A DNA stretch of 55,224 bases from positions 1 through 55,224 of the forward strand of contig VFJT01000063.1 of the NCBI GenBank assembly GCA_009885935.1. The letters are read 5' to 3'. Each line of letters opens with the position of its first letter. The stretch's first letter is position 1. The notes under the pieces were generated by a model that worked only from the letters and a program-made list of their open reading frames with translations, was not told the DNA's origin and made no database searches. The stretch comes from Gammaproteobacteria bacterium. Its GTDB lineage: Bacteria > Pseudomonadota > Gammaproteobacteria > UBA1113. Positions 19,869 to 55,224 of this stretch are shown piece by piece. The position numbers were made by a program, and so were the translations under genes.

Positions 19869-19894
19869 GGGCAGGCACAGGGGCCTGCCCCTAC
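19869..19894 (-). repeat. REP element (GTAG-headed GC-rich hairpin), singleton
   Basis: The minus strand reads GTAGGGGCAGGCCCCTGTGCCTGCCC. It lies 10 nt after the clpB stop. Confidence 0.85.
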
Positions 19895-25305: not shown

Positions 25306-25316
25306 TAATATAGCCA

Positions 25317-25351
25317 CCCTGTCTGAAAATAAACCCTATTTTCAGACAGGG
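25317..25351 (+). terminator. Perfect 14-bp stem hairpin after the 839-aa gene
   Basis: CCCTGTCTGAAAAT (25317-25330), loop AAACCCT, ATTTTCAGACAGGG (25338-25351). It begins 12 nt after the stop. The trailing T-tract is weak. Confidence 0.6.
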
Positions 25352-25360
25352 TATCTTCGC

Positions 25361-25389
25361 TTGAAAATTCTTTGTACATGAGGTATTAT
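25361..25389 (+). promoter_or_regulatory. sigma70-type promoter (TTGAAA-17-TATTAT)
   Basis: TTGAAA at 25361-25366, 17-nt spacer, TATTAT at 25384-25389. ATG at 25423 with an AGGGG SD. Confidence 0.45.
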
Positions 25390-25422
25390 TACTCTACAGC
25401 TATTTTTTAGGGGTAAAGTAAT

Positions 25423-26208
25423 ATGCCAATTAGAGAAACTACCCGTTCGGGGAAACTTGAAGGGCTGCCATCTCAGAGCTGTAGCTTTTTTTGTTTTCCC
25501 CGCCCTTCTACCGTAGATAAACGTTGTCTAGAATTGCAAGAGGACATTGAAAAACAGGAAAAGTATATTGCTGAACTCGAAGATTACAATTTGCATGCGA
25601 AGAAGCCTATTGAGCGCGATATTAAAGCATATGAAATTTATAAGAAAAAAGTAAAATTTGAGCTGAAAAAAATTGGAGCCGAGATAGTTGGATTAGAAGC
25701 AAAAATAAATTACGAGCTCTGCCCAATGACCACCCTTCCTTCTGAAACATCCGAATTAAAAAATAATAAAATTTACCTCAATAGCACAACCCGAGAGTGC
25801 ACAGTTGTAAAATCAAGTCAAAAAAATGCAGATTCTTTCTATTTAAGGAAAGAAGATTTAGATCTCAGTCATTTAAATACTCCAGGCTTAAAAAGTGAAG
25901 TTTTGAGCCTGATCTTACAAAAAGGTATCATTAAATCCCCTAGCCTGCAAAAAAAGATACTAGAGATTAAAAACCAATGTAGAGAATATAAAGCATATGA
26001 GGCCAGACTCCACAAAACAGAAGATAGCATTATTGAGCTTAATCAAGAGTTAAATTGTATTTGTAAACAAATAGATGACCATAAGAAATCACTCTCGCAG
26101 AAAAGAGTGCTTCTCTGCCAGTTAGAAGCAGAACTGATCAAAACTATAACTGAACCTATAATACAGGAAATTGAGCATCGCTTTAGACCACTGCCACCAG
26201 GAGCATAG
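25423..26208 (+). CDS. Orphan 261-aa coiled-coil protein
   Basis: Heptad-rich, Lys/Glu-rich sequence (QEDIEKQEKYIAELEDYN..., KKSLSQKRVLLCQLEAELIK). No family recognised. Confidence 0.55.
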   Translation: MPIRETTRSGKLEGLPSQSCSFFCFPRPSTVDKRCLELQEDIEKQEKYIAELEDYNLHAKKPIERDIKAYEIYKKKVKFELKKIGAEIVGLEAKINYELCPMTTLPSETSELKNNKIYLNSTTRECTVVKSSQKNADSFYLRKEDLDLSHLNTPGLKSEVLSLILQKGIIKSPSLQKKILEIKNQCREYKAYEARLHKTEDSIIELNQELNCICKQIDDHKKSLSQKRVLLCQLEAELIKTITEPIIQEIEHRFRPLPPGA

Positions 26209-26221
26209 GCATAACGACCTA

Positions 26222-26250
26222 TTGACAGGCACACCCAAGTTGTCTAAAAT
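26222..26250 (+). promoter_or_regulatory. sigma70-type promoter (TTGACA-17-TAAAAT)
   Basis: TTGACA at 26222-26227, 17-nt spacer, TAAAAT at 26245-26250. Confidence 0.5.
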
Positions 26251-26301
26251 AACCTCAACCCTGAAATGGGAATCCATAGTCAAATTATTGAGGTAAAAAC
26301 C

Positions 26302-26886
26302 ATGTTTAGCAAAAAAATCATTCTTATCAGCTCCGTACTAGCTTTAACCCCTTTATTGGGTGGCTGCGGCCCTAGCCTATCGCCAAACACTTATAGTGGC
26401 AGTGATGTAGGCGTAGCCAGTAGGGTCCTTAAAGGGACTATTATTTCGATACGTCAGGTTAAAATACAGCAAAATAGTGGTGTAGGTGCCGTAGGCGGTG
26501 CTGTTGCTGGCGGTGCGGCGGGCAGTTTGATTGGCGGCAGTACAGCGGTTAATATCGTTGGCGCCACTGGGGGCGCTCTAGTAGGTGGCCTCATAGGAAA
26601 TGAAGCCGAGAAACAGTTCCGTAAAGATGTAGGCTATGAATACATCATTCAGCTGAACAATAATTCAACTATTTCTGTCACCCAGCAGCAAGACCTGCAG
26701 CTAGCCCTGAATCAGCACGTATTGGTCATTTATGGACCAACTACGCGTATAGTACCGGATAATACGGTTAGTGTGCCTAGCACAACAGCAACCCCTGCTC
26801 CCAAAAAGACCACGGCTGCCAAGCCCGCGGCTACAAAGAGTAGTACAGCTACTCCTACTGCTCCTGCAACAACAACCAAGCAATAG
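26302..26886 (+). CDS. Glycine-zipper outer-membrane lipoprotein (SlyB/Pcp/17-kDa-antigen-like) with Thr/Ala/Pro-rich tail
   Basis: Start revised to ATG 26302 (GAGG SD). Lipobox LLGGC. Glycine zipper GVGAVGGAVAGGAAGSLIGG. Confidence 0.8.
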   Translation: MFSKKIILISSVLALTPLLGGCGPSLSPNTYSGSDVGVASRVLKGTIISIRQVKIQQNSGVGAVGGAVAGGAAGSLIGGSTAVNIVGATGGALVGGLIGNEAEKQFRKDVGYEYIIQLNNNSTISVTQQQDLQLALNQHVLVIYGPTTRIVPDNTVSVPSTTATPAPKKTTAAKPAATKSSTATPTAPATTTKQ

Positions 26887-26902
26887 TGGCGATCGATCTA
26901 TC

Positions 26903-26928
26903 GTAGGGGCAGGCTTCCGTGCTTGCCC
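26903..26928 (+). repeat. REP element, degenerate singleton
   Basis: GTAGGGGCAGGCTTCCGTGCTTGCCC, 17 nt after the lipoprotein stop. Confidence 0.75.
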
Positions 26929-27034
26929 TTATAACTGCGCTGCTTTACTTCTTTAAGCTTAAGAATCAATCAGTTAGAAAATTTTTGAAATAACCTCAAC
27001 TTATCTTATTTTTTAAACCTCATAAAAAAATAAA

Positions 27035-27067
27035 ATTAATATTTCCTTAATATTAATCTGGTATAAT
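27035..27067 (+). promoter_or_regulatory. Exact PmrA consensus box (aTTAATATT-TC-CTTAATATT) followed by TATAAT
   Basis: TTAAT at 27036 and 27047 (11-bp phasing). TATAAT at 27062-27067. ATG at 27120. Confidence 0.65.
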
Positions 27068-27119
27068 TTTAACACAAAAGTGATTTAACACTTAAATATT
27101 ATAAAGCGCAGGTAATAAA

Positions 27120-28757
27120 ATGTATCCAACTCACGAGGAATTGATAGAATTCATCCATCTTTTGGGCTATCCAAATTATAGTGGTGGTATTTGCTTTGGT
27201 CTTGCAGCAATGGCTGTATCGCCCGTATTAAATGGCTCTACTGAAAAGACAAATTTGCGTTTGACAACCATAAAATTCAGCTTAGATGCCTATAAAAACA
27301 TGCAAATAGCCTGTGAAGAAAATGGGGAATCTTGCCCTACATTATCTTGGTTTTTAAATTACACATTAGCACTAGATGAAAAGATAGATATATTAGCTTA
27401 TTGTGAAGGAATTGCTTTTCACTTTTTCCCTTCAGACTACGCGGACTGTTTTGACTCTGATATATTACCAGGACGACAAGATATATTATTGACCGATAGC
27501 ATTATTCAATCTATTGAAACAGAAGAAAAAGGCGGTATAGCACATGCGGGAACAATAACAGGTTATTATACTGAGTCTGACATTAAAACTTATATTCATT
27601 CTTTAGATTTAGCTTTAGAAGACGGTGAGAATTCAGCATCTTTTTCATTGATAATAGATAGCAGGAATCATGCCATTCACATTGGTTATAGTAGCGAAAC
27701 AAAGCAATGGTGTTATTTTGGCATTAATACAGAGTCGATAGGGTATTGTTTAAAAACCACCATTGATGAAATAAAAAAATTAATAGTGTCTGAATTTTTT
27801 AATGAAATAGGCGTCGATTTAGGTCTGGTTATTAGTGCAAAAATATATTGCTTGAATGAACACAAAGAAAGAATATTGCGGGTTAAAAGAAACTGGCAAA
27901 ATAAGGCTTTCGAAAATGATTTGTTCAAAATTACTGATAAAAACTCTGGCTTAGATGTATTGGGTAGAGCTTGGATACATGCTTTAATTATAGAGAATGA
28001 TAGAATGGGTATATTCTATCTGATTACACATGAAATAAATGTTGATATCGTTTCCAAAACTGGGTTTACAGCACTACATCTGGCCTGTCATAGCGGTTAT
28101 AAAGACGCAGTAGAAATATTGCTTAATGCTGGTGCTGATGCAAATAGGGAGTCTCCTGATGGAACACCTATCATAATTGCTCTGCGGTATAAACAGTACG
28201 AAATTGTAAAACTTCTAATAGAAAAAAATGCGTGTATTAGTGCAAAAGATAAAGATGGATTTACCGCGTTAGATTACGCTATTTTATCTAAAAAAGCAGA
28301 TATCGTTGAGCTCATATTAGTTAATCTGAATTTTGATGCGATCATTCTAAATGAAATTTTATTCCGCTTTTTCATAAGACAACAAGAAAGCCATGAAAAT
28401 TATCTGCTTTCTTCTTGCGTGAAGAAATTATTTACTGCCATTCTAGATGTGCAGCAGATAACAGATGAGAATAAATTATGTGTTTTACAAACATATATCA
28501 TTATTCGCGAAAATGAATTAAGAGAAAAAAAAGAAGAATATAACACTGCCTACTCGCGGTTCTTTCGCCCCACTGGTAGCAATGCTTCTGCAAAATTAAA
28601 TTCTGCTAGAGCGTTGCTGAATCAAGAGAAAAATATAGAGAAACGTTTGGCACTACAGTTTGGACGTTTGGGGAAAATTGCAGCCTTTTTCTTAAATCCT
28701 AGCAACAGCGCCCAAAATCATCTAGCAAACGCGGAACAAGCTGCTTTGACAACATAA
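27120..28757 (+). CDS. Ankyrin-repeat protein with an uncharacterised N-terminal ~290-aa domain (possible Cys/His hydrolase)
   Basis: At least three ANK repeats (GFTALHLACHSGYKDAVEILLNAGADAN, DGTPIIIALRYKQYEIVKLLIEKNA, DGFTALDYAILSKKADIVELIL). N-terminal GGIC(25)FGLAAMA and NH(184)AIH(187)IGY. Confidence 0.85.
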   Translation: MYPTHEELIEFIHLLGYPNYSGGICFGLAAMAVSPVLNGSTEKTNLRLTTIKFSLDAYKNMQIACEENGESCPTLSWFLNYTLALDEKIDILAYCEGIAFHFFPSDYADCFDSDILPGRQDILLTDSIIQSIETEEKGGIAHAGTITGYYTESDIKTYIHSLDLALEDGENSASFSLIIDSRNHAIHIGYSSETKQWCYFGINTESIGYCLKTTIDEIKKLIVSEFFNEIGVDLGLVISAKIYCLNEHKERILRVKRNWQNKAFENDLFKITDKNSGLDVLGRAWIHALIIENDRMGIFYLITHEINVDIVSKTGFTALHLACHSGYKDAVEILLNAGADANRESPDGTPIIIALRYKQYEIVKLLIEKNACISAKDKDGFTALDYAILSKKADIVELILVNLNFDAIILNEILFRFFIRQQESHENYLLSSCVKKLFTAILDVQQITDENKLCVLQTYIIIRENELREKKEEYNTAYSRFFRPTGSNASAKLNSARALLNQEKNIEKRLALQFGRLGKIAAFFLNPSNSAQNHLANAEQAALTT

Positions 28758-28780: not shown

Positions 28781-29803
28781 ATGAAAAAAATTAATTTTGC
28801 CAGTGACAATTATGCAGGCGTTCATCCTGAAGTCATGCAGGCTATTTTAGCTGCCAATGAAGGGCCCGCTGTTGCTTATGGTGGCGATGCGATCACCGAA
28901 GCAGCTATACATCAATTTAAGCAACATCTAGGCGCTGATGCCGAAGTCTTCTTTGTCTTGAATGGCACAGGGGCCAATGTGAGCGCTATCTGTGCCATGG
29001 CACACAGCTACGAAGCCGTCATTTGTGCCGAGAAGGCCCATATTCAAGTCGATGAATGCGGCGCAGCGGAGAAAATAGCCGGTTGTAAGCTGCTGTTAGT
29101 TCCGGCCACACACGGCAAAATAACAGTAGAAGGCATACGGACACAGCTACAACGCATAGGGGATCAACATCATGTGCAAGCACGAGTAATATCGATCAGC
29201 CAATCCACTGAATATGGCACCGTTTATACATTGGATGAATTACGCGAGCTAGCCGCTTTTGCAAAAGCACATGGGCTGTATTTACACATGGATGGCGCAC
29301 GCCTTGCGAATGCGGCAGCCAGTTTGCAAACCGATTTAAAAACCATTGCAGAAGCCGCTGGTGTAGACGTGCTGTCATTTGGCGGCACTAAAAATGGCAT
29401 GATGATGGGGGAAGCCGTTGTTTTCTTGAATCCCCTATTGGCAAAATCATTTTTATATATACGTAAGCAAAACATGCAATTGGTATCGAAAATGCGTTTT
29501 ATCTCAGCACAATTTCAGGCTTTATTGTCTAATGATTTATGGCTGAATAATGCACGCCACGCCAATGCCATGGCGCAACACCTGGCGCAAGCATTAAGCG
29601 AAATTAAATTCATTCATATTACCCATCCCGTCGAGGCCAATGCCATTTTTGCAACGATGCCCACTGCCCTCATTGAAAAACTGCAGACACGCTATCATTT
29701 TCATGTGTGGGATGAAGGGTTATCGGAAGTGCGTTTGATGACATCGTTTGATACCTGCATAGAAGAAATCGATGCTTTTGTTCAAGATTGCGTTATAGGG
29801 TAG
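28781..29803 (+). CDS. ltaE: Low-specificity L-threonine aldolase
   Basis: INFASDNYAGVHPEVM, HMDGARLANA and the PLP lysine in FGGTKNG. Confidence 0.85.
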   Translation: MKKINFASDNYAGVHPEVMQAILAANEGPAVAYGGDAITEAAIHQFKQHLGADAEVFFVLNGTGANVSAICAMAHSYEAVICAEKAHIQVDECGAAEKIAGCKLLLVPATHGKITVEGIRTQLQRIGDQHHVQARVISISQSTEYGTVYTLDELRELAAFAKAHGLYLHMDGARLANAAASLQTDLKTIAEAAGVDVLSFGGTKNGMMMGEAVVFLNPLLAKSFLYIRKQNMQLVSKMRFISAQFQALLSNDLWLNNARHANAMAQHLAQALSEIKFIHITHPVEANAIFATMPTALIEKLQTRYHFHVWDEGLSEVRLMTSFDTCIEEIDAFVQDCVIG

Positions 29804-43904: not shown

Positions 43905-44636
43905 TTATTCCTCGTGCCCTTTGCCGGGTTTATATAAACGGCGCTGTAAAATACCCGTTAGTTCATGGCGAAAAGCCGTATACTGATTGGTGAGGCGCTC
44001 TGCGCTACGCGAATAGCGGTTATACGCAATAACGGCCGGAATAGCGGCAAATAAACCCATGGCGGTGGCAATCAGAGCTTCCGAAATGCCTGGTGCAACC
44101 ATGGCAATGGTGGCTTGCTCGCTTTGGCCCAGAGCTTGGAATGAAGTCATGATACCCCACACCGTGCCAAACAAACCAACATAAGGACTAGTGGAACCTA
44201 TGGTAGCGAGAATAGGCAAATATTGCTCAATTTCATCTATTTCGCGGTTTTCAGCAATGGCCATGGCGCGTTCTGCATTTTCTAGGGTGATATCTTGCGG
44301 CAAAGCTTCTTTTTTAGCGTGAGTAAAAGATTCAAAACCCGCTTGAAAGATAGCGGCGAGTCCCAAATGCGGTGCTTTTTTTTGCGCCACACGGGCATAT
44401 AACTGCGTTAAATCTAGGCCTGACCAAAATGTTTCTTCGAATTGACGCGCCAATTTGCTTAAACGGCGATAAAATGAACTTCTTTGAAAGATAATGGTCC
44501 AAGAAACTAGAGAGGCACCCAATAAAACCAACATCACGCCTTTGACTATAGTACTGGCATCGGTAAAAAAATGTACCACTGACTGATCAACAACCATAAA
44601 AACCATCCCTACATGCGCAAAAATTAGGCTTAGCAT
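43905..44636 (-). CDS. tolQ: Tol-Pal system protein TolQ
   Basis: MotA/TolQ/ExbB signature LATIGSTSPYVGLFGTVWGIM. The true start is probably ATG 44606 or 44597. Confidence 0.93.
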   Translation of the reverse strand: MLSLIFAHVGMVFMVVDQSVVHFFTDASTIVKGVMLVLLGASLVSWTIIFQRSSFYRRLSKLARQFEETFWSGLDLTQLYARVAQKKAPHLGLAAIFQAGFESFTHAKKEALPQDITLENAERAMAIAENREIDEIEQYLPILATIGSTSPYVGLFGTVWGIMTSFQALGQSEQATIAMVAPGISEALIATAMGLFAAIPAVIAYNRYSRSAERLTNQYTAFRHELTGILQRRLYKPGKGHEE

Positions 44637-44692
44637 ACCCTATTTTAGGTATACGTTGCAACCAGGTTTTCTACGATGCAATAATATAAAAC

Positions 44693-44749
44693 GTAGGGGC
44701 AGGCCCCCGTGCCTGCCCTTGTAGCAATAATCACAGGTGTTGCTCCTAG
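44693..44749. repeat. REP plus degenerate inverted partner upstream of tolQ / phhB
   Basis: GTAGGGGCAGGCCCCCGTGCCTGCCC (44693-44718) is followed by GTAGCAATAATCACAGGTGTTGCTCCTAG. Confidence 0.75.
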
Positions 44750-44797
44750 GTGCAGATTCACATACAGTAAGCAGCCATATCTTTTGGAGAATTTATC

Positions 44798-45127
44798 ATG
44801 ACCCATTTAGCCCATAAAAAATGCAACCCCTCTCCTGAGCCCCTAAGTGCAGAAATATGCCAAACTTATCTGAATAAGGAAACCCTGGGCTGGAGTATGA
44901 CCCGTGATGGTAAGAGTATTGAACGGCGCGTGAGTTTTAAGAACTATTATCAAACCATGGCTTTTGTAAATGCGGTAGCCTGGATGGCGCATCAAGAAGA
45001 TCATCATCCTGATCTAGAAGTCCATTATGACCACTGCTGGATTCGCTATAACACGCATAGCGTGGGTGGTTTATCCGAAAATGATTTCATTTGCGCGGCA
45101 AAGGTGAATATAATTTTAGGGGAGTAA
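44798..45127 (+). CDS. phhB: Pterin-4-alpha-carbinolamine dehydratase
   Basis: 109 aa. EDHHPDLEVHYDHCWIRYNTHS core motif. Confidence 0.9.
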   Translation: MTHLAHKKCNPSPEPLSAEICQTYLNKETLGWSMTRDGKSIERRVSFKNYYQTMAFVNAVAWMAHQEDHHPDLEVHYDHCWIRYNTHSVGGLSENDFICAAKVNIILGE

Positions 45128-45138
45128 AGGGGCCAACC

Positions 45139-45164
45139 GTAGGGGCAGGCCCCCGTGCCTGCCC
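45139..45164 (+). repeat. REP element at the convergent phhB / response-regulator junction
   Basis: GTAGGGGCAGGCCCCCGTGCCTGCCC. It lies 12 nt after the phhB stop and 6 nt before the opposing stop. Confidence 0.88.
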
Positions 45165-45169
45165 TTTAA

Positions 45170-46183
45170 TTAAGCATTCACCGCCTGCATATAATGCGCA
45201 AAACTAGCTATATGTTGAACATCAGGCAACGACGGTACTTTTCTGCTCTCAATGACAGAATAATAATATCCTTCTCTACCTGGAACTTTTCTACCAAGAT
45301 GCGTATTAACAACCCAATCGTCTCTTTTTGAGCCAATAAATTTTTCAAAGGTGCCAAAAAAGGGTAATAAAGTTCCGTTTAAAATTCTCTTCACCAGCTC
45401 TGCCGGAACCCGTTGATCTTCCGCCATATCGGCATACATGGCTAAATCTTCTTCGGTTCTAACGACCAATACCGTCATCACTCCGTCTTTATCGACCAAA
45501 ATGAAACTACCGGTGTTTTCACACAGATAATGTTCTACACTATTCAAATCGGTTTTTATCTTTGCAAAGACATTAGCAAAGGCTGCATCATTTAATATGG
45601 GCGTTGTCTTCTCAACAATTGAGCTAAACAGCGTGGTGCATAAGTCTAAAAAATAAACTTTTTGCATTTCATTGATAGCAGCATTTATTTTTTCTTCTAA
45701 GCCATCTTCATTTTTCAAGAAAAATTTATCTATTTTTTTCTCATTAAACAGTTTTACCGCCAAAGTATGATCGGCTTCGCCCGTGACCATGATTATTTTT
45801 GCAAATTTATTCTTAACCTGGGCTCTTAATTGATCGATGAATTCCACCCCAGTCAATGTAGGCATAGAAAAATCGACTACGATAACGGAAATAACATCAA
45901 AGCGTTCTGGTTTTAACAGCGCTGTTTTAATTTCTTTAGTATGTAAAGTAACATTTTGTTGTGAAGAATCGGGCGATTCTGTATCTGCCATTAGGTAATT
46001 TTCATCTATAGGGGTTATCTTTGCATTTTCTGTGCAATAGGCTAACGCTTCTTTGGGATCACTAAAAGTATGGTATATTGCATCGTCATCTAGCTTCAGG
46101 CTTAATGTTTTAAGGAAGGTCTTATTATCGTCTATTAAGATGGTGGTGGTAGGGTGAAATAGTGGGCTGATTAGTAAAGTCAT
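45170..46183 (-). CDS. Atypical response regulator: receiver domain with a large insertion plus an unknown C-terminal domain (LqsR-like architecture)
   Basis: 337 aa with a GGAGG SD. Receiver residues are TILIDDN, VVD(104)FSMP, MVTGEAD and FFLK. About 45 aa are inserted between beta2 and beta3. There is no HTH in the C-terminal ~150 aa. Confidence 0.6.
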   Translation of the reverse strand: MTLLISPLFHPTTTILIDDNKTFLKTLSLKLDDDAIYHTFSDPKEALAYCTENAKITPIDENYLMADTESPDSSQQNVTLHTKEIKTALLKPERFDVISVIVVDFSMPTLTGVEFIDQLRAQVKNKFAKIIMVTGEADHTLAVKLFNEKKIDKFFLKNEDGLEEKINAAINEMQKVYFLDLCTTLFSSIVEKTTPILNDAAFANVFAKIKTDLNSVEHYLCENTGSFILVDKDGVMTVLVVRTEEDLAMYADMAEDQRVPAELVKRILNGTLLPFFGTFEKFIGSKRDDWVVNTHLGRKVPGREGYYYSVIESRKVPSLPDVQHIASFAHYMQAVNA

Positions 46184-46269
46184 AGGGAATCCTCCGTAAT
46201 ATTTGTTAAGGTCTACAGCGCGCAGGCTAAAGCGGATTGTATACCTGGGGATGGAGACTATGCAATACC

Positions 46270-47586
46270 CTATACCCCCTTAATTCTCGGAAAATAGAGT
46301 AAAAACTCGCTAAATTCTCCTTCAACAGTATGGCATTCAATACTGCCACCCAGCTCTTGCATCGCCCTGGCACAAAAGGCCAAGCCTAAGCCTACTCTAT
46401 TGGACTTATGGCCCAGAAGTTGTTGAAATAGAATGTCTTGTACATCCTGAGATATGCCAGTGGCCGTATCTTTAAAATGCAAAACATTAGCCTTGCGCTC
46501 TATTGTTTGCCATAAATCAATCTGCCCTTTACCCGCTGTTAATATATAATATAAAGCGTTTTTTAATAAATTCAACACAACATGTACAACCAACTCTTCT
46601 GAACCCATAAAAGAAAAATCGTTGTCATGATTCCAATGGATAAGACTTTCTTGTCCTTCAGAAAATGGGTAATGCTGCAGCGCTTTGTGGATGCAATCGC
46701 TTATTTTTAGTACTTCTGCCGCATTTTTCTTAAAAACAACCGGTTTTACATTACAAAGCAGCATATCCATAATCACATGCCCAAACTTTGCTTCCCTTTC
46801 TATATCGTCAAATAAAGTAGATAACACCTCAAAGCGCCTGGAAGGAATAATTTGCAGGCCTTCTAAATTGTTTTTTTTGGCCAGTTGGTAAGTGTCTATC
46901 AACACCGGGAAATATTTTTTGGCCCCCTCAATGCCCATGATGATAGCCGATAGTGGCGTGCGCATTTCATGTGCAATTCCTGAGCCTAGGGCTTCCGCTG
47001 TTTTTAATTTTTTCTGGGTTTCCAAGTGTTTCCTATTCTTGGCCAATAGTGCGACCAAGATAAGAAATCCTGCATATATCGAGAATATGCTATAAACATA
47101 ATGCGTTAGAGGACAAACAGTGTGATTTAGACTAGATGCCCCTATTGCCGCAGCAACACCTAGAAAAAATAAAATTAAAGCGCTCACCCAATCCACTAAT
47201 AATACTAACCAAAAAATGATGCTGCTAAAGGCCATCAGTCGCAGAAGAGAGGCTGGATTGTGCAAAAACAGCCAGGTAAAAAAGAAAGGTAGACAATAAG
47301 TCAGCGTTATATACCAATAAATCGGTAGCCATTTTTTCGCTATTTCGGGCCATTGCCCCCTTAAAAGCAATCCTAGGCATAAAAAGGTTGCAATCAGCCG
47401 TAAAATAAGGCCTTCCTGGTTTATCCCTGTTCCAAATAACACAACCCAGGCAAAATAAAATAGGCAATAATATAGTAGCCCCAAGAGAGAAAACAGCGTA
47501 AATGGGGGGCCAAAGTCATTGATGCTACGCTCAATTTTTTTGTTTAGCCTAGTGCCTATAGCCTTAAAAGAGCCTATTTTGAACAT
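46270..47586 (-). CDS. Six-TM sensor histidine kinase of the CqsS/LqsS type (no receiver domain)
   Basis: Start revised to ATG 47586 (GGAGG SD 6 nt upstream); the ORF-track extension reads through a REP. Motifs: CLPFFFTWLFLHNP in TM3, H-box GSGIAHEMRTPLSAI, VLNLLKNALYY, and GLGLAFCARAMQELGGSIEC...EFLLYFP. Confidence 0.65.
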   Translation of the reverse strand: MFKIGSFKAIGTRLNKKIERSINDFGPPFTLFSLLGLLYYCLFYFAWVVLFGTGINQEGLILRLIATFLCLGLLLRGQWPEIAKKWLPIYWYITLTYCLPFFFTWLFLHNPASLLRLMAFSSIIFWLVLLVDWVSALILFFLGVAAAIGASSLNHTVCPLTHYVYSIFSIYAGFLILVALLAKNRKHLETQKKLKTAEALGSGIAHEMRTPLSAIIMGIEGAKKYFPVLIDTYQLAKKNNLEGLQIIPSRRFEVLSTLFDDIEREAKFGHVIMDMLLCNVKPVVFKKNAAEVLKISDCIHKALQHYPFSEGQESLIHWNHDNDFSFMGSEELVVHVVLNLLKNALYYILTAGKGQIDLWQTIERKANVLHFKDTATGISQDVQDILFQQLLGHKSNRVGLGLAFCARAMQELGGSIECHTVEGEFSEFLLYFPRIKGV

Positions 47587-47674
47587 GTGAACCTCCGGTG
47601 TAATATTCTTATCATTCAGTATGGCTTGTTTGTGGGAACGTTCGTGAGCCTTAACGAATGTCAACCTTATTTTC

Positions 47675-47731
47675 GTAGGGGCAGGCCCCCGTGCCTGCCC
47701 GACAGGGGCAACCACAGAGGGTTAGTCCTAC
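47675..47731. repeat. Inverted REP doublet (second arm degenerate) upstream of the kinase gene
   Basis: GTAGGGGCAGGCCCCCGTGCCTGCCC (47675-47700) and GGGGCAACCACAGAGGGTTAGTCCTAC (47705-47731). Confidence 0.8.
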
Positions 47732-48151
47732 GACAGATCATCGTTTCGCTTATCATTTAGAGCCGCCCTGCTTAATCGCCAGAATTATTAGCCCGAAGAA
47801 TAAATCAACCCTACCTAAATTGCAATAGTACGTAATAATCTGCAGTACTATAGAAATTCTGAGTGATATAGAGCGACATTCACCGATGACCTAACGCTAA
47901 TTAGCACCTTCATTTTGCTTTATGACCAACTAATGTTAATTACAGTGTTCTGTATTCAATTTTTTAAATATTTAATACTAACGACTAGATAAAGTTTCAG
48001 AATGGGTGTACAATCCGCGCTAATTGGCGTAGGCGTATTAACCACACTGTAAGATATTTGAAGTGCGCAGCGGGGTTATAGCCCAGGTTATTCGATGGAA
48101 TAGAGTGTCCTAAGTTGACGTAATTCACATCTTGAATAGGAAAAAATTATT

Positions 48152-49141
48152 ATGAAAAAAAAACTATTAGGCATAAAACCATTACAGATTTCTAATCTAG
48201 GTCTAGGTTGTATGGGCATGTCAGAATGTTATGGCAAAACCAATGATCTAGAATCCATTAGAACCATTCATCGTGCCATAGAATTAGGGATAACCCATAT
48301 TGACACCGCGGATTGCTATGGCTTAGGGCACAATGAAAAGCTCTTAGCTAAAGCGCTAAAAGGGGATAGAGAAAAGATAATACTTGCTAGTAAATGCGGA
48401 ATGGTGAGAAATCTTGAAACAGGAGAATTTACTGGCGTCAATGGCCGCCCCGATTATATCAAACGTTCTTGTGAAGCCAGTTTAAACCGTTTAGAGGTAG
48501 ATTATCTCGATTTGTTTTATTTACACCGGGCCGATCCCAATACCCCTATAGAAGAAAGTATGGGCGCATTTGCCGACTTAGTGGCCGAAGGAAAAATACG
48601 TCATATTGGTTTATCTGAAGTTTCTGCAAAGACCATTGCCCGAGCACATAAAGTTCATCCACTCACTGCCATTCAGTCTGAATATTCCTTATGGCACAGA
48701 AAACCTGAAGAGGAAATCATCCCTTTGTGCCAAGCGCTTAATATTGGTTTTGTGGCGCATGGCCCTATGGGCAAAGGTTTTTTTACCGGAACTATTGAGA
48801 GCATAGACACTTTAGAAAAAGATGATTTACGTAGAATTTTACCGCGCTTTCAAGATGAAAATATTACGCATAATCTGCAGATGATGCAAGTGTTAAGAGA
48901 AATAGCGCTTAATCGTGGTGTAACTCCCGGACAAATTGCATTGGCTTGGGTTTTAAGTCAGGCTGACAATATAGTTGCTATCACAGGGACAAAACAAGTT
49001 GCTCATTTGGAAGAAAATGTCAATGCGGCTTATTTGGAACTGTCACCAGAAGAATTATTACAGATTGAACAACACATACCTCTTAATTTTGCACAAGGTG
49101 ATTTACTCCCTGAATCCTTTGCTAAATTTTCCGAGCAGTAA
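48152..49141 (+). CDS. Aldo/keto reductase
   Basis: 329 aa. LGLGCMGMS, the catalytic tetrad context (DTADCYG, ASKCG, YLHR) and a C-terminal GTKQVAHLEENV. Confidence 0.9.
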   Translation: MKKKLLGIKPLQISNLGLGCMGMSECYGKTNDLESIRTIHRAIELGITHIDTADCYGLGHNEKLLAKALKGDREKIILASKCGMVRNLETGEFTGVNGRPDYIKRSCEASLNRLEVDYLDLFYLHRADPNTPIEESMGAFADLVAEGKIRHIGLSEVSAKTIARAHKVHPLTAIQSEYSLWHRKPEEEIIPLCQALNIGFVAHGPMGKGFFTGTIESIDTLEKDDLRRILPRFQDENITHNLQMMQVLREIALNRGVTPGQIALAWVLSQADNIVAITGTKQVAHLEENVNAAYLELSPEELLQIEQHIPLNFAQGDLLPESFAKFSEQ

Positions 49142-49143
49142 GC

Positions 49144-52100
49144 ATGTCCGGCATAGTTCAAAAATATCCAGCACACAATAGCTTATTACCGCTATTTTTC
49201 GCTTGGCAGCTAGCTCCTGATGGGGGCAATTATAATTTAAGTTTTTCTTATACTGTCAAAACCGAAGTAGAAACAGAATTAGTTGTTGAAAAGCTCCAAG
49301 AGTTGATTCATGCAAAATCATATTTACGACAAACTTTTTCTTTTGAAGGAAATAAGTTATTTTCTTGTGTTCACGAAGAATTATCGGCCGAAATAAATAC
49401 ATTTAACTGTTGCAAATCAGAATTCTCTGAGCTTGAGAAAACTTTAATTCAGCAACCACATGATATTGAAAATGCGTCAGCAATTAAGCTAAATATCATT
49501 TGGATAAATGACCATCATCATTATGTCATCTTATTTAACATTCACCATGTTCTTATGGATGCTCAAAGTGTAGATAAGTTTGTCATAGATTTGAACCACG
49601 CTATAGCTGATCAAAAAATAAAACTTATACCGCCTAATGAATATATTGATGAAATAATGCAAGAGTCCGACCTTGCTGAAGAAATAGAAGAAATTTTTGT
49701 CATGGATTATTTGGAGAAAGTAAATTTTTTCAGAGAGGAAGTTAATTACCCGGCTGTGCGCCCTCAAAAATCTATCGAATATTACACAGACATTTTACCT
49801 GGCGAGCTTAAAGAAAAACTAATTCAACTCAGGCAGCAATGTGACATTAGTTTATTCAATTTGTTACTTTTAGCTTGGGGGATATTTTCCCACAAACTTT
49901 TTGATTCAATAGATGTGCTTATTAGTTATCCAGTTAATATTCGCAGGAATAAAACTCTCGAAGGTTGTTTCATAAATAATTTTATATTGCCTATGAATTT
50001 TTCAGAAAATGACACTTATTTATCTGTTATAAATACATGGCGCGAGCAAGCTACCACCTTCAAGAAAATTGCAAAAATAAAATTAAGTGGTAAATTAAAT
50101 GTAGGCTCAATACCCAGCTTCATTTATTCAAATATGGTTCGCCCGCTTGAATTGGTTATTCAAGATAAGCGATATGTAGCAAAAAGCTATCCGCAAATTG
50201 CCAATTATAATTTAAGCGTAAAATATAAAGAACGGAATGGTAATTATTTTTTTAGTTGCGATATCATATCCGATCTTTTTCCTGAATATTTCTCTTCTAC
50301 TTTACTGCCACGATTCTTTAACCTTTTAAATGAGTTGCTGGAAAATATTTCCGCCCCATTATCAATATTAGATATAACGCTCCCAGAGGAAAAACAGCAG
50401 CTATTATATGAATTTAATAGCACCCGCGGTTATTACCCTAAAAACACCACCTTAACGGAGCTATTTGAAGCGCAGGTAAAAAGAACCCCGCATAATATTG
50501 CTGTTGTATATGAAGAGACCAAATTAACCTATATACAGCTAAATGAAAGGGCAAATCAGTTGGCTTATTATCTGAAGAACAATCACACAATAAAAAGAGA
50601 TGAGCTCATTGTATTGCTCTTAGAAAGAAATGAGCACATGCTCATTTCTATTTTAGGCGTATTAAAATCAGGAGCGGCTTATGTGCCGCTAGACTTAACA
50701 TGCCCCGCCGAAAGAATTAGTTCTATTTTAGAAGATACTAAAGTAAAAATCATTTTGACTAATGAAATTTTCAAAAATAGACTATGTTTTTCCGAGCTTC
50801 AACTTCCACAAAACAGATGTGTTATTGAAGTTGACGCCCATAGTTTACAGACCATTTTAGTAAAACAAAAAAATATTGATCTAATCTCAACTGCCAATAG
50901 CACAGATCTTGCCTATGTCATTTATACCAGCGGAACAACGGGAAAACCAAAAGGTGTAATGGTTGAACATAGAAGCGTCATAAACACAATATTTTCAATG
51001 AACAAGGTGTATTCAAGAAAAAGTCTAAAAATTAAAAAGACACTAAAAATAACAGCCTTTAGCAGCTATGTCTTTGATGTGTCAATATCAGAATTTTTTG
51101 CAGCTCTTTTAAATGGGCATGAATTACATATTTTAAACAATTTAATGCGGCATGATATTAATTTGATTGCCGAATACATTAATAAAAATAAAATTGACTA
51201 CACCTATCTCCCACCCGTTATGCTCGCTAACCTGCCTAAAATAGATTATCCATCATTACAAGGAATAATTTATGCAGGAGAACCCTGCGATAAAAAAACA
51301 GCATCACACTGGTCTAATAAGCATGAATTATACAATTATTATGGTCCTACAGAAGCATCCATTTACAGCACTGGGTTACAGCTTAAAAGCGCCGAAGTTA
51401 ATTTAATTGGCAAGCCCATTATGAATACAACAGCTTATGTATTAAACTCTGAAAAATTACTGCACCCTATTGGTGTCATTGGTGAGCTATTCATCGGTGG
51501 AACCGGTCTTGCCAGAGGCTATTTGAATCAGCTTAAACTGACAGGCGAAAAATTTATTGCTAACCCATTTCAAACGTCAGAAGAAAAAAGCATGGGGGAA
51601 AATGCGCGCCTTTACAAAACAGGTGACTTAGTGCGCTGGCACCCCGATGGAAATTTAGAATATATCGGCCGCAATGACTTTCAAGTTAAAATGCGCGGAT
51701 ATCGCATAGAATTAAGTGAAATAGAAAATAAATTAGCCGCTTATCCAGGAATTAACTTCGCTATTGTGCTAATGAAAAAAGATGAAAGAAACTATAGCGA
51801 GCATATAAATAATAAATATTTAGTGGCCTATTATCTAGCAGAGCAAAAAATAGAGAGTGCTATATTGGATGAATATTTAGCAACGCAATTACCAGAATAT
51901 ATGTTGCCCAATATCTTTATCCATTTGAAGGAATTACCACTCACTATTAACGGTAAGTTAGATCGAAACGCGCTGCCTGAGGCTGAATTTGTCCGCAATG
52001 AGGACTACATACCTCCCAATAATGTGAGAGAAGAATTGCTGTGCATGGCATTTTCTCAAATTTTAGGCCTAGAAAAGATTGGAATTAACGATGATTTTTT

Positions 52101-53496
52101 TAGACTAGGGGGGGACTCAATAAAGGCCATTGCGCTCGTGGCTAAATTGCAAGTTAATTTCAGTATCAGCGTTACCGATGTGTTTAATTTGAAAACCCCT
52201 GAAAAAATCTCTAAAAGCATTCCATTGATGAAAAGCAATTTAAAGGGGAATTTAATTCGATTTAAATTGAATTATGAACAGCGCAATGTAATCGACAAAG
52301 AGATGCAAGATAAGCTGGAAACTTATTGGAGCAACAATAATAAACCAGTATTAGACCATAAAAAAAAGAAAATCGTTAACATTTTGTTGACGGGTGCTAC
52401 AGGGTTTTTGGGTTGTAATTTACTGAACCAACTTTTAATATTAACTGATTATAACATTTTCTTATTAGTTAGAGCCAGCTCAGATCTTGATGCATTTGAT
52501 AGAGTTAATCAAAAATTTCGATTCTATTTTGATAAAAACTTACGTGACATGGGTTGTCAACGAATCACTTTGTTGCAAGCTGATATCGAAAAAGAAAATT
52601 TTGGCGTTTCCGAAGTAACGTACGAATTACTGATTAATAGTATAGATAGTATCATTCATTGCGCAGCATTTACCAAGCATTATGGTGAGCCTGAAAAATT
52701 TTATTCAGTTAATGTTTGTGCAACGGTTAATTTGTTAAAGCTATCCTGCTTGACAAAGTTAAAAGACTTTCATTATATCTCTACCACCTCCGTTTTAAAT
52801 CAAGGCCACATCTCTAACTGCGACTATTTCTGTTTTACAGAAGATGATACTGGCACTAACTTAGAAAAACGATTCACCGCTTATGCAGAAACTAAATATC
52901 AAGGGGAGCAAGCCGTTGTTGAATACCGTAAACAAGGAGTGATAGGCAATATTTATCGCATAGGTAACCTAGCGTTCATTTTAAATGGTGGTATTCCCCC
53001 AGAAAATATTAAAGATAATGCTTTTTTTAACCGCATCAATTGTTTATTAAAGCTAGGAATTACCACCCAAGCCATAAATTTTGAGGAAATATCGCCTGCA
53101 GATTTGACTGCACAAGCCATTGTTAAGTTATTTGATAAAGCCCAGCTCAGCAATCAAAACTTTCACATATTTAATCCTAATTTATATAATATAGCAGAAT
53201 TTTTTAATCAAAATGAATTTTATGATATTAAAATGTTACCTTTTGAGGAATTCTCTGATATAATACTAATGCAGTTAGATAATCCTAAATACCAAAAAAT
53301 AATTCAAAAATTTTTACTCCACCAAGGTTGGCTAGATGGCTCATTTATGGACACAACCGCTATCCGAGTTTTACAAGATAGAACTGAACATATTTTGCAA
53401 CAACTGGGTTTCAAATGGGAAGTTATCACTGATAAAACATTTAGTAAATATATTGAAATGGAGATAAGAAGTGACAAAAAACTTGCAACCACATGA
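49144..53496 (+). CDS. Single-module non-ribosomal peptide synthetase, C-A-T-R (terminal thioester reductase)
   Basis: 1450 aa.
- C domain: HHVLMDA (49543-49563).
- A domain: TSGTTGKPKG (50926-50955), FDVS (from 51073), NYYGPTE, YKTGDL, GRNDFQVKMRGYRIEL, NGKLDR (Lys938).
- T domain: LGGDS with Ser992 (52117-52119).
- R domain: TGATGFLG (52390-52413) and YAETK (from 52882).
It starts 3 nt after the AKR stop. Confidence 0.92.
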   Translation: MSGIVQKYPAHNSLLPLFFAWQLAPDGGNYNLSFSYTVKTEVETELVVEKLQELIHAKSYLRQTFSFEGNKLFSCVHEELSAEINTFNCCKSEFSELEKTLIQQPHDIENASAIKLNIIWINDHHHYVILFNIHHVLMDAQSVDKFVIDLNHAIADQKIKLIPPNEYIDEIMQESDLAEEIEEIFVMDYLEKVNFFREEVNYPAVRPQKSIEYYTDILPGELKEKLIQLRQQCDISLFNLLLLAWGIFSHKLFDSIDVLISYPVNIRRNKTLEGCFINNFILPMNFSENDTYLSVINTWREQATTFKKIAKIKLSGKLNVGSIPSFIYSNMVRPLELVIQDKRYVAKSYPQIANYNLSVKYKERNGNYFFSCDIISDLFPEYFSSTLLPRFFNLLNELLENISAPLSILDITLPEEKQQLLYEFNSTRGYYPKNTTLTELFEAQVKRTPHNIAVVYEETKLTYIQLNERANQLAYYLKNNHTIKRDELIVLLLERNEHMLISILGVLKSGAAYVPLDLTCPAERISSILEDTKVKIILTNEIFKNRLCFSELQLPQNRCVIEVDAHSLQTILVKQKNIDLISTANSTDLAYVIYTSGTTGKPKGVMVEHRSVINTIFSMNKVYSRKSLKIKKTLKITAFSSYVFDVSISEFFAALLNGHELHILNNLMRHDINLIAEYINKNKIDYTYLPPVMLANLPKIDYPSLQGIIYAGEPCDKKTASHWSNKHELYNYYGPTEASIYSTGLQLKSAEVNLIGKPIMNTTAYVLNSEKLLHPIGVIGELFIGGTGLARGYLNQLKLTGEKFIANPFQTSEEKSMGENARLYKTGDLVRWHPDGNLEYIGRNDFQVKMRGYRIELSEIENKLAAYPGINFAIVLMKKDERNYSEHINNKYLVAYYLAEQKIESAILDEYLATQLPEYMLPNIFIHLKELPLTINGKLDRNALPEAEFVRNEDYIPPNNVREELLCMAFSQILGLEKIGINDDFFRLGGDSIKAIALVAKLQVNFSISVTDVFNLKTPEKISKSIPLMKSNLKGNLIRFKLNYEQRNVIDKEMQDKLETYWSNNNKPVLDHKKKKIVNILLTGATGFLGCNLLNQLLILTDYNIFLLVRASSDLDAFDRVNQKFRFYFDKNLRDMGCQRITLLQADIEKENFGVSEVTYELLINSIDSIIHCAAFTKHYGEPEKFYSVNVCATVNLLKLSCLTKLKDFHYISTTSVLNQGHISNCDYFCFTEDDTGTNLEKRFTAYAETKYQGEQAVVEYRKQGVIGNIYRIGNLAFILNGGIPPENIKDNAFFNRINCLLKLGITTQAINFEEISPADLTAQAIVKLFDKAQLSNQNFHIFNPNLYNIAEFFNQNEFYDIKMLPFEEFSDIILMQLDNPKYQKIIQKFLLHQGWLDGSFMDTTAIRVLQDRTEHILQQLGFKWEVITDKTFSKYIEMEIRSDKKLATT

Positions 53497-55224
53497 ATGC
53501 ATGAATTCTATCGTAGAAACTTTACCAATATCGATTTATTGGACGGATGCTAGTTGTGTTATTTTAGGGGCAAATAAAACTTTTCTAAAAAACATTGGCG
53601 CAACTTCTCATGAAGAAATCATTGGAAAAACTCTTTATGATATATTTCCATATGAAATAGCAGATTGTATAAAAGAACATCATGATGAAGTTATACATGG
53701 AAAAGAAACCTTGTCCCGAGAAGAAAAAATCAGAGATATTGCTACTGGAAAATTTAAATATTTCATTACAGTAAAAGCTCCTTTATATAATGATAATGGG
53801 GTTCTCACTGGAAGTGTAAGCACTTCTATTGAAATCACTGCGCAGAAGCAAAAAGAATATGTAGCAGGCAATGTAAAAATATTAGATGAGCTTGATAAAA
53901 TCGCCTCTATTATTCCGGCACCTCTTTATTGGGAAGATGTCAATAGTGTTATTCTAGGCGGTAATGAAGCCGTTTTTAAAGAGACTGGTGCTTTGACTCG
54001 TGACGCTTATGTGGGTAAAACACTGTATGAACTCTATCCAGAAGAAATGGCCAATCAGATTAAACAGCATAATGAAAAGGTAATGCGAACTGGAGAAATT
54101 TTATCTCAGGAGGAAGCGATTGAAGATATTATTACTGGAGAGCTAAAATATTTTACAGCGGTTAAAGCACCTTTGTATGATGAGCAAGGTAATGTTATTG
54201 GTATAGTTGGAACATCTATTGATATTACCAGACAGAAGGAAGCTGAACGTTTAAAACTTGAAAATGAAATTCAGCTGCAGCAACAAGAAAAATTCACCAA
54301 ACTTGCCAATCAAGTGGCACACGATATACGTTCTCCATTGGCGAGCTTGGTAATGATTGTAAAGGCTTGCACGCAAATTCCAGAGGGAGATCGCATTGCG
54401 TTAAGAGAAGCCGCTATCACTATAGGAGATATAGCGAACCATTTATTACATCAATACCAGAAAAAAGACAAGATGGATGCAACTGAAAGTGAAGAACGTC
54501 AACCCATTTTAGTGTCTGCTGTTTTGATAGAATCCTTAAGCGCCAAAAAGTACCAATACGAGAATTTAGCCATTAAATTTGACGGTCATTTTAAAAGCCA
54601 TAGCCATTTTGCCTTTATTAAAATAGGATCCAGCGCTTTTAAGCGTATGCTGTCTAATTTAATCAACAATTCAGTAGATGCTTTCGACAATCAGCCAGGA
54701 AAAATAGATTTACAGTTAGAAGTGAATAATGAATGGGTTAAGATCATTATTCAAGATACAGGTAAAGGCATGTCGCCTGAATTGATTGACAAAATCATGC
54801 ATAAAACGGCTGTAACCGAGGGTAAAAAATCGGGACACGGACTAGGTTTAACTCAAGTTTGGGAAACTTTGGAGCACAATCAAGGCGAAATGCATATCGC
54901 CTCTGAACCGGGTAAAGGTACTACTATTACGCTCACCTTTCCTAGAGTGAAAGCACCCTACTGGATTGCAGAAGAAATAGCCCTAAACTCTAATGATACA
55001 GTTATTATTTTAGACGATGATACTTCCATACACGGCGCTTGGCGCGCACGGTTTGAAAGCATTTTGAATGAAAGCACGCAGATACAACTCAAACATTTTC
55101 AATTGGGCAAAGAAACATTGGAATACATTCAATCTTTAGCTGCAGATGAAAAAGAACAAATTTTTCTGCTTTCGGACTATGAACTGTTAAAGCAAGATTT
55201 GAATGGATTGCACATCATTGCACA
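53471..55224 (+). CDS. Hybrid sensor kinase PAS-PAS-HisKA-HATPase-REC (partial; runs off the window end)
   Basis: Absent from the ORF track because it has no stop in the window. The frame is open from 53468 to 55224. GTG 53471 has GGAGA 6 nt upstream and overlaps the NRPS 3' end by 26 nt; alternative ATG 53501. Two similar PAS units (LPISIYWTDASCVILGANKTF..., PAPLYWEDVNSVILGGNEAVF...). H-box VAHDIRSPL (His codon 54317-54319). GKGMSPE...GHGLGL. Then VIILDDD...FLLSDYEL, a receiver. Confidence 0.85.
   Translation, partial: MTKNLQPHECMNSIVETLPISIYWTDASCVILGANKTFLKNIGATSHEEIIGKTLYDIFPYEIADCIKEHHDEVIHGKETLSREEKIRDIATGKFKYFITVKAPLYNDNGVLTGSVSTSIEITAQKQKEYVAGNVKILDELDKIASIIPAPLYWEDVNSVILGGNEAVFKETGALTRDAYVGKTLYELYPEEMANQIKQHNEKVMRTGEILSQEEAIEDIITGELKYFTAVKAPLYDEQGNVIGIVGTSIDITRQKEAERLKLENEIQLQQQEKFTKLANQVAHDIRSPLASLVMIVKACTQIPEGDRIALREAAITIGDIANHLLHQYQKKDKMDATESEERQPILVSAVLIESLSAKKYQYENLAIKFDGHFKSHSHFAFIKIGSSAFKRMLSNLINNSVDAFDNQPGKIDLQLEVNNEWVKIIIQDTGKGMSPELIDKIMHKTAVTEGKKSGHGLGLTQVWETLEHNQGEMHIASEPGKGTTITLTFPRVKAPYWIAEEIALNSNDTVIILDDDTSIHGAWRARFESILNESTQIQLKHFQLGKETLEYIQSLAADEKEQIFLLSDYELLKQDLNGLHIIA

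Follow-up and report, generated by a model that had tools for sequence, protein, structure and literature searches.

Lqs signalling controls virulence, motility and the growth-phase switch in Legionella. In Legionella pneumophila, where the genes lie in the order lqsA-lqsR-hdeD-lqsS, two sensor kinases, LqsS and LqsT, converge on Asp108 of the response regulator LqsR (PMC5289986). Receptors without a synthase occur in 20 of 58 Legionella species, and the presence of lqsS and lqsR without lqsA has been read as eavesdropping (Herran et al., 2021, PMC8023197); in Ralstonia, the LqsR-family regulator PhcX has become coupled to phc quorum sensing instead (Liu et al., 2023, PMC10653808). Nonribosomal peptide synthetases (NRPSs) with a terminal reductase make small diffusible regulators (PMC5878181, PMC8442906, PMC10194917), and the monomodular NRPSs of Legionella with condensation (C), adenylation (A), thiolation (T) and reductase (R or Red) domains, C-A-T-Red, are predicted to make an acylated amino aldehyde, alcohol or oxazoline ('cluster D'), the adjacent regulator being taken as a hint of a signalling role for these clusters (Tobias et al., 2016, PMC5126622). 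Here we describe a locus at which Lqs-type proteins and an NRPS of this kind are encoded back to back. The window, by which we mean the whole stretch of DNA analysed, is one entire contig (VFJT01000063.1, 55,224 bp) of a metagenome-assembled genome (MAG), and statements of absence from the window refer to this contig.

On the minus strand, the window encodes an LqsS/CqsS-family sensor histidine kinase and an LqsR-family regulator. Divergent from these is an operon for an aldo/keto reductase (AKR), a single-module NRPS and a cytoplasmic PAS-PAS histidine kinase. The Lqs half of the locus is real but not new in kind. The new part is its neighbour, an NRPS-PAS kinase pair that is conserved, sometimes fused, swapped as a cassette among relatives and found repeatedly beside Lqs-type proteins, and that probably represents a self-made signalling circuit of a type absent from the searchable literature. 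We propose, with a probability that we put at roughly 0.45, that the NRPS/AKR product is sensed by the PAS kinase and that the output converges on the LqsR-like regulator, beside a listener-only Lqs pair. For the many species that hold receptors without a synthase, such a locus would offer an alternative input, namely an NRPS product and a PAS kinase welded to its synthase.

The NRPS and the PAS kinase form a conserved module

The AKR gene (48152..49141, plus strand; 329 aa; Pfam Aldo_ket_red, E 5.8e-80) is followed by the NRPS gene (49144..53496, plus strand; 1450 aa), in which Pfam and NCBIfam models delimit the C (49195-50406), A (50464-51957), T (52036-52215) and R (52378-53457) domains. 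The PAS kinase gene (53471..55224, plus strand) is truncated at the contig end, its orthologues having 749 aa, and the part present encodes PAS1 (53501-53854), PAS2 (53873-54244), the H-box with His284 (codon 54320-54322), the CA domain (54635-54946) and, from 54959, a receiver-like region. An earlier note on this DNA had described the three genes as a divergent, AT-rich operon lying across a 565-nt intergenic region from the Lqs-type genes, with the PAS kinase overlapping the NRPS stop. The open reading frames (ORFs) and Pfam matches agree with this description, as do the 565-nt gap, the GC content of the operon (0.34-0.40, with 0.34 for the NRPS, vs 0.47 for tol-pal) and the GTG start of the PAS kinase at 53471, which overlaps the NRPS stop by 26 nt. 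A PDB sequence search with the PAS1-PAS2 region gave no match.

A protein search placed the NRPS in a family of C-A-T-R proteins of ~1450 aa, a metagenome scan with the NRPS having returned three weak loci only. Over its full length, it is 50-53% identical to proteins of L. feeleii, L. fairfieldensis, L. quateirensis, L. nautarum and others, a likeness, together with the C-A-T-Red architecture, to the Legionella NRPS clusters C and D (PMC5126622). In all nine family members examined, the PAS kinase either overlaps the NRPS stop or is fused to the NRPS. The overlap is 26 nt in the window, in L. feeleii (L095) and in L096, 17 nt in L099 and 7 nt in L098. Four different C-A-T-R-PAS-HK fusion proteins (P0182/L097, 1937 aa; P0190, 2255 aa; P0269, 2205 aa; P0284, 2241 aa) are 36-48% identical to one another and have different A-domain codes; a PAS search of 1.84 billion representatives, which returned mostly multi-PAS proteins, added two fusions to this set. 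A reductase, either an AKR or a short-chain dehydrogenase/reductase (SDR), adjoins the NRPS in five of the seven loci mapped. We conclude that NRPS(C-A-T-R)->PAS kinase is a conserved module.

The main text of Tobias et al. (2016, PMC5126622) makes no mention of a sensor kinase, gene fusions, allele swapping or a link to Lqs for these NRPSs, and we found no description of NRPS-histidine-kinase linkage, of such fusions or of an Lqs link in the searchable literature. The NRPS-kinase pair is also present in the cultivable species L. feeleii, L. quateirensis, L. nautarum and L. fairfieldensis, which makes the idea directly testable. The synthase-sensor fusions and the allele swapping described below would give a ready-made pairing of ligand and receptor for orphan monomodular NRPSs.

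Synthetase and PAS domains are exchanged together

We compared the window with two other cassettes, L099 from a sister lineage and L096 from a phylogenetically distant genome. Against the window proteins, the AKR is 84% identical in L099 and 70% in L096, and the transmitter part of the PAS kinase is likewise similar in both (DHp 82% and 73%, CA 88% and 71%, receiver-like region 85% and 66%). The NRPS as a whole is 44% identical in L099 and 60% in L096, PAS1 34% and 52%, and PAS2 63% and 85%. The LqsS-like kinase is 75% identical in L099 and is not comparable in L096. The discordance among these three cassettes is clear, and from it we infer that the NRPS and the PAS domains were exchanged as one block in a conserved frame. 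The three A-domain codes are DVSYIAYIYK (window), DAIFIAAVHK (L099) and DVAYIAYIYK (L096). Within the window clade, the AKR, the kinase core and LqsS/LqsR follow lineage, and the transmembrane (TM) sensor of the LqsS-like kinase, 71% identical between the window and L099, diverges smoothly with lineage. That the AKR was kept while the NRPS was swapped would fit reduction of a common aldehyde function.

This exchange has the look of that seen for signal/receptor specificity cassettes, judged from three alleles. It resembles agrBDC of Staphylococcus and comQXP of Bacillus, in which the synthase and the ligand-binding part are swapped together while the transmitter stays typical of the lineage. 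The window system differs from these in that the signal would be NRPS-made rather than ribosomal and the sensor is a cytoplasmic PAS region rather than a membrane domain, with three alleles as the basis of comparison. The suggestion in the earlier note of a self-contained small-molecule signalling module is supported in one half, since NRPS->PAS-kinase coupling is found in 9/9 cases and the PAS domains co-vary with the NRPS allele; the half in which LqsS acts as receptor is not supported.

The position taken up by the cassette is variable among close relatives. In L014, a formyltransferase and adenylation gene (464-3618) occupies the slot in place of the C-A-T-R NRPS, and the N-terminus of the AKR survives as a remnant in a 95-aa ORF (3615-3902; 73% identity over 56 aa). 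That L014 keeps this remnant beside a different adenylating gene shows that the cassette was replaced in place. L012, L013 and L017 keep only a one-PAS kinase, and L015 has neither NRPS nor PAS kinase. In L013, two tandem PAS-kinase paralogues (341-4170) lie beside lqsS-lqsR without an NRPS; their PAS domains are 74% and 33% identical to PAS2 of the window, and L013 may listen to several signals.

Downstream of the PAS kinase, L099 (296-1949) encodes a truncated PAS ORF and two ~215-aa PAS-GerE proteins, GerE being a LuxR-type helix-turn-helix (HTH). In one of these, the PAS domain shares 53% identity with PAS2 of the window, whose contig ends before this position. The product of L099 953-1612 aligns weakly over its full length with VqmA, the Vibrio receptor for 3,5-dimethylpyrazin-2-ol (DPO) (E ~3e-3), so that the likeness to the VqmA-DPO system lies in VqmA-like PAS-LuxR-type proteins beside the cassette.

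An Lqs pair without its synthase

The kinase gene (46270..47586, minus strand) encodes 438 aa with the H-box histidine at residue 206 (codon 46969-46971), and the regulator gene (45170..46183, minus strand) encodes 337 aa with the acceptor Asp104 (codon 45872-45874); the kinase lies 86 nt upstream of the regulator on the same strand. An ORF check agreed with the coordinates, lengths and 86-nt gap given for the pair in the earlier note. The mechanically called kinase ORF extends to a GTG at 47715, but the extension holds a copy of a palindrome resembling repetitive extragenic palindromic (REP) sequences and homologues begin with MFKIGS, on which grounds we take the ATG at 47586 as the true start.

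Compared with L. pneumophila LqsR (PDB 6SY9), the regulator aligns almost end to end (query 7-334 with chain 28-352; phmmer against PDB, E 4.5e-39); the second-best PDB match covers the receiver only (E 5e-7). Asp104 (VVDFSMP) falls on the Asp of VVVVDYAMP in 6SY9, numbered Asp108 in the literature (PMC5289986). The Pfam Response_reg match is confined to residues 87-160, from which we deduce an insertion in the receiver, and the full-length alignment identifies the C-terminal output domain as LqsR-type, without a DNA-binding domain. The LqsR-like architecture that had been proposed in the earlier note, with a receiver insertion, acceptor Asp104 and a C-terminal domain without a recognisable DNA-binding motif, is in agreement with these matches, and by homology the regulator is a true member of the LqsR family.

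For the kinase, the quoted H-box and C-terminal motifs are present in the sequence. Hydrophobicity is unbroken over residues ~27-182, where no loop exceeds 10 aa, and this hydropathy profile predicts, as had been claimed, about six TM helices without a periplasmic domain. Pfam finds HisKA and HATPase_c, the protein ends four residues past HATPase_c, and there is no Response_reg match, consistent with the claim that it lacks a C-terminal receiver, as LqsS does. Membership was judged against kinases of Legionella lqs clusters rather than against L. pneumophila LqsS or V. cholerae CqsS themselves: residues 4-435 are 32-36% identical to the kinases of L068, L081 (L. feeleii), L086 and L089 (E 1e-52 to 1e-61), which come from Legionella drozanskii, feeleii, massiliensis and jamestowniensis and whose clusters carry a gene matching V. 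cholerae CqsA (E 8e-98). Proteins labelled CqsS at JGI are 36% identical to the kinase. NCBIfam holds no CqsS/LqsS model, and the best match of the kinase there was the catalytic half of LuxN, far under the cut-off. On the strength of the near full-length homology to the lqs-cluster kinases, the kinase is, in keeping with the likeness seen in the earlier note, a true member of the LqsS/CqsS family.

The pair thus shares with the L. pneumophila Lqs system a regulator matching LqsR over its full length, with Asp104 equivalent to Asp108, and a receiver-less kinase of about six TM helices, with His206 equivalent to His200 of LqsS and His204 of LqsT. It differs in lacking LqsA and hdeD, in identities of about 26-36% and in gene order, which is kinase->regulator, as in most of the family. 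A scan with one genome per species gave 428 LqsR relatives; among the 82 loci with a regulator (80 loci examined together with loci fetched earlier), the kinase->regulator order was found in 75 and a convergent cqsA/lqsA homologue directly downstream of the regulator in 46.

No CqsA/LqsA synthase was found in the window, either with a hidden Markov model (HMM) of 46 CqsA/LqsA homologues run on the six-frame translation (best E 0.014) or by tblastn, in line with what the earlier note had read from the sequence. The sole class-I/II-like pyridoxal phosphate (PLP) enzyme in the window is a beta-eliminating lyase (28781-29803). Likewise, none of the window-clade loci (L012-L017, L099) has a cqsA/lqsA homologue beside LqsS/LqsR. 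The window pair is an ordinary member of a known family in the 'listener-only' configuration. The missing synthase is no novelty, since 20 of 58 Legionella species are already on record as lacking it (PMC8023197), and loci L010, L077 and L079 also hold lqsS and lqsR without lqsA. Unlike these listener-only Legionella loci, the window pair lies outside the genus, forms part of a distinct clade and is flanked by an NRPS/PAS-kinase cassette unreported in PMC8023197. It resembles Ralstonia PhcX (PMC10653808) in that an LqsR-family regulator has come off LqsA and lies physically beside a different signal-synthesis system, but in Ralstonia the partner is PhcB/PhcS and LqsS is lost, whereas here LqsS is kept and the neighbours are an NRPS and a PAS kinase.

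In the nearest outgroups, a Haem_oxygenas_2/DUF3050 gene lies directly upstream of the operon of an LqsS-type kinase and LqsR-like regulator. These haem-oxygenase-like (HDO-like) genes (L008 7959-8657, which overlaps the kinase start; L018 7862-8617; L025 13660-14487) may represent a third type of synthase associated with Lqs-type two-component systems.

The cassette recurs beside Lqs-type proteins

In six of the eight clade lineages mapped, the PAS kinase is divergent from lqsS-lqsR. A second, unrelated arrangement is seen in L096, where the AKR-NRPS-PAS kinase operon is followed 37 nt on by an LqsR-family regulator (319 aa, E 5e-43). In a neighbour-joining tree, this regulator lies far from the window clade, beside L025b, and since it sits on a different branch, the association of cassette and Lqs-type proteins arose at least twice. 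L096 also encodes, divergent from the cassette operon, a 261-aa LqsS-type kinase (6991-7776) that consists of DHp and CA only, without a TM or PAS sensor. In L025, L050, L062 and L075, the direct partners of LqsR-like regulators are cytoplasmic PAS kinases with an LqsS-type catalytic core. L075 was also considered as a further case of NRPS-LqsR linkage and was rejected; the NRPS fragment there is 7 kb off, is an A-T-TE enzyme (TE, thioesterase) and is separated by housekeeping genes.

The predicted product

The catalytic motifs HHxxxD (HHVLMDA), GGxS (GGDS), GxxGxxG (TGATGFLG) and YxxxK (YAETK) are present in the window NRPS and conserved across 53 aligned family members, and the R domain matches the R-domain structures of MxaA and AusA. 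The A-domain code, DVSYIAYIYK (pocket 51073-51099), is shared without change by about two dozen proteins from Legionella and MAGs, with A domains only 46-62% identical to that of the window. This conserved code suggests a strongly selected substrate; other codes in the family include the Gly-like DILQLGLIWK and the Val-like DAFWLGGTFK.

The earlier note had compared the enzyme with NRPSs whose amino aldehydes become pyrazine- or pyrazinone-type signals. The synthetases for valdiazen (ham), leudiazen/Pvf (mgo/pvf) and aureusimine (AusA) share with it the terminal thioester reductase, but are organized as A-T-R or A-T-C-A-T-R and either have N-oxygenase partners or give products that dimerise to pyrazinones. 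In the window, the architecture is C-A-T-R, the AusA model matches partially (628 bits vs a cut-off of 2500), there is no N-oxygenase, and a receptor candidate lies in the same operon. In an NRPS of one module, an N-terminal C domain with an HHxxxD motif implies that the loaded amino acid is N-acylated and should block the free amine; since this domain comes before the only A domain, release of a free amino aldehyde and its dimerisation to a pyrazinone are unlikely. An N-acylated amino aldehyde or alcohol is more likely than a pyrazine or pyrazinone.

Competing explanations

We envisage two signalling units back to back: a listener-only LqsS->LqsR pair and a divergent AKR->NRPS->PAS-PAS kinase cassette, the latter a conserved and mobile synthase-plus-sensor module of Legionella and relatives. 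The C domain would N-acylate one amino acid activated by the A domain (code DVSYIAYIYK), the R domain would release the product as an aldehyde and the AKR would reduce the aldehyde to an alcohol. The translationally coupled kinase would sense this small lipophilic product in the cytoplasm, through its PAS domains, and would pass phosphoryl groups to Asp104 of the LqsR-like regulator. The same regulator would also be served by the LqsS-like kinase, which most likely hears another hydrophobic signal, probably of foreign origin. That these two kinases converge on one LqsR-like regulator is plausible and has a precedent in L. pneumophila, although the second kinase there is the orphan LqsT, whereas the candidate here is a cytoplasmic PAS kinase rather than an LqsT paralogue. 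A more far-reaching version holds that the cassette is an unrecognised signalling class with co-exchanged synthase and PAS alleles, fused in at least four lineages and in some capturing an orphaned LqsS/LqsR as output, such that one LqsR-type regulator would integrate a self-made NRPS signal and foreign alpha-hydroxyketones; this we consider possible, if somewhat doubtful.

Several observations weigh against sensing by the PAS kinase with output through the LqsR-like regulator. The source organism is uncultured and known as a MAG, and the proposal rests on sequence analysis. The co-variation of PAS domains and NRPS is drawn from three cassettes (window, L099 and L096), and in the wider family PAS2 identity tracks the A-domain code weakly, at 85% and 67% within the same code group vs 63%, 62% and 51% outside it. 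Alternatively, the PAS domains could respond to redox state or to a cofactor. The note had described the PAS kinase as a PAS-PAS-HK-REC hybrid; Pfam recovers the PAS-PAS-HK part, but neither the window fragment nor the 749-aa orthologues gave a Pfam or PDB sequence match for a receiver. Against canonical receivers, the first unit of the C-terminal region aligned weakly (hhalign E 0.003, probability 11%) and the second not at all, leaving a receiver-like motif pattern, VIILDDD ... LLSDYEL ... KILPKQ, and nothing beyond. As this C-terminus is unconfirmed as a receiver and no Hpt domain was seen in the window-type kinase, the proposed route of phosphotransfer is less certain; Legionella orthologues of the PAS kinase carry REC and Hpt. 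The contig holds no phosphopantetheinyl transferase (PPTase) or acyl-donor genes. Finally, AKR-NRPS is absent beside LqsS/LqsR in L012, L013, L015 and L017, and in Legionella the NRPS-kinase pair is located away from the lqs genes, so that the Lqs link is not obligatory. The adjacency that the earlier note had proposed to look for is accordingly conserved in part: it recurs in the sister L099 and in L096, but AKR-NRPS is missing in those four relatives.

These last findings also speak for the cassette and the Lqs pair being neighbours without a functional link, the cassette a mobile metabolite island in a recombination-prone slot (dnaE to lqsS-lqsR) and the Lqs pair eavesdropping on foreign alpha-hydroxyketones. 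Four relatives hold LqsS/LqsR in place without the NRPS, the NRPS-PAS kinase lies apart from lqs genes in Legionella, the GC content of the NRPS (0.34) is under that of its surroundings, the slot has been replaced repeatedly and listener-only Lqs systems are common in Legionella (PMC8023197). What makes us judge this rather unlikely is that L096, in a second and unrelated arrangement, has an LqsR-family regulator co-operonic with the cassette, that the PAS kinase stays by LqsS/LqsR in six of eight clade lineages even without the NRPS, and that a window-type PAS kinase without an Hpt or output domain of its own needs a partner regulator. The cassette might also make a bioactive end product, such as a protease inhibitor resembling peptide aldehydes or a compound aimed at an amoebal host, with the PAS kinase sensing an environmental or redox cue, or NRPS activity, and controlling production. 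Reductively released aldehydes are often protease inhibitors, PAS domains commonly bind flavin adenine dinucleotide (FAD) or haem or sense redox state, regulators inside biosynthetic clusters are usual, and the ankyrin-repeat protein and host-associated flavour of the contig fit host-directed chemistry. However, synthase-sensor fusions, found in four lineages, and NRPS and PAS alleles that are swapped jointly typify signal-receptor pairs more than they do a sensor of generic cues, and related PAS domains are fused to LuxR-type HTH domains, a VqmA-like architecture, beside the L099 cassette; we regard an end product of this kind as unlikely.

The strongest reading of the earlier note, in which NRPS/AKR took the place of LqsA as autoinducer synthase, with the LqsS-like membrane kinase as receptor, could draw on the absence of CqsA/LqsA from the contig, on divergent and possibly co-regulated promoters, on a predicted N-acyl amino alcohol that would be lipophilic like an alpha-hydroxyketone and on the HDO-like enzymes paired with the kinase in outgroups, which make synthase swapping plausible. 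It is nonetheless the least supported reading and, in our view, improbable. The TM sensor is 71% identical between the window and L099 despite their different NRPS codes, vs 34-63% for the PAS domains, relatives without the NRPS keep LqsS/LqsR unchanged, and the Lqs-type kinase beside the L096 cassette has no sensor domain. Because the LqsS-like kinase neither co-varies with the NRPS allele nor disappears with the NRPS, it is an unlikely receptor for the product, and the PAS kinase is our preferred sensor.

Intergenic and flanking features

The divergent promoter region (47587..48151, 565 nt) contains blocks that alignment shows to be conserved with L099 and L014, and a window-specific insertion of ~170 nt that carries a REP-like copy (47679-47700). 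Promoter-like hexamers occur in this region at chance frequency, and the counts from promoter and terminator scans were at chance level. The motif CGCTAATTRG is present in two copies (47890-47905 and 48018-48030) inside the intergenic blocks kept in L099 and L014; it is not enriched across the window, its support being conservation among relatives, and we consider it a candidate operator only. An Rfam search of 44000-55224 gave no match.

The REP-like GC-rich palindrome, GGGCAGGCACGGGGGCCTGCCC, has 10 copies of 22 nt in the window (3 or fewer mismatches; 0 expected by shuffling), all of them intergenic, starting at 19869, 26907, 32858, 33997, 38868, 40524, 42532, 44697, 45143 and 47679. The same scan found none within the AKR-NRPS-PAS kinase stretch. 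The copy at 45143..45164 lies between the convergent stops of a pterin dehydratase gene and the regulator gene and is possibly a bidirectional terminator.

Two low-GC blocks lie elsewhere on the contig. At the contig start (1018-4100, GC 31-33%), a tyrosine integrase gene (2853-4100) adjoins a 620-aa ORF without a Pfam match, and this is probably the edge of an integrated element. The block at 22786-28757 contains ORFs of 839 aa and 261 aa without Pfam matches and a 545-aa ankyrin-repeat protein (27120-28757), all of which look like effectors, as in amoeba-associated Legionellales.

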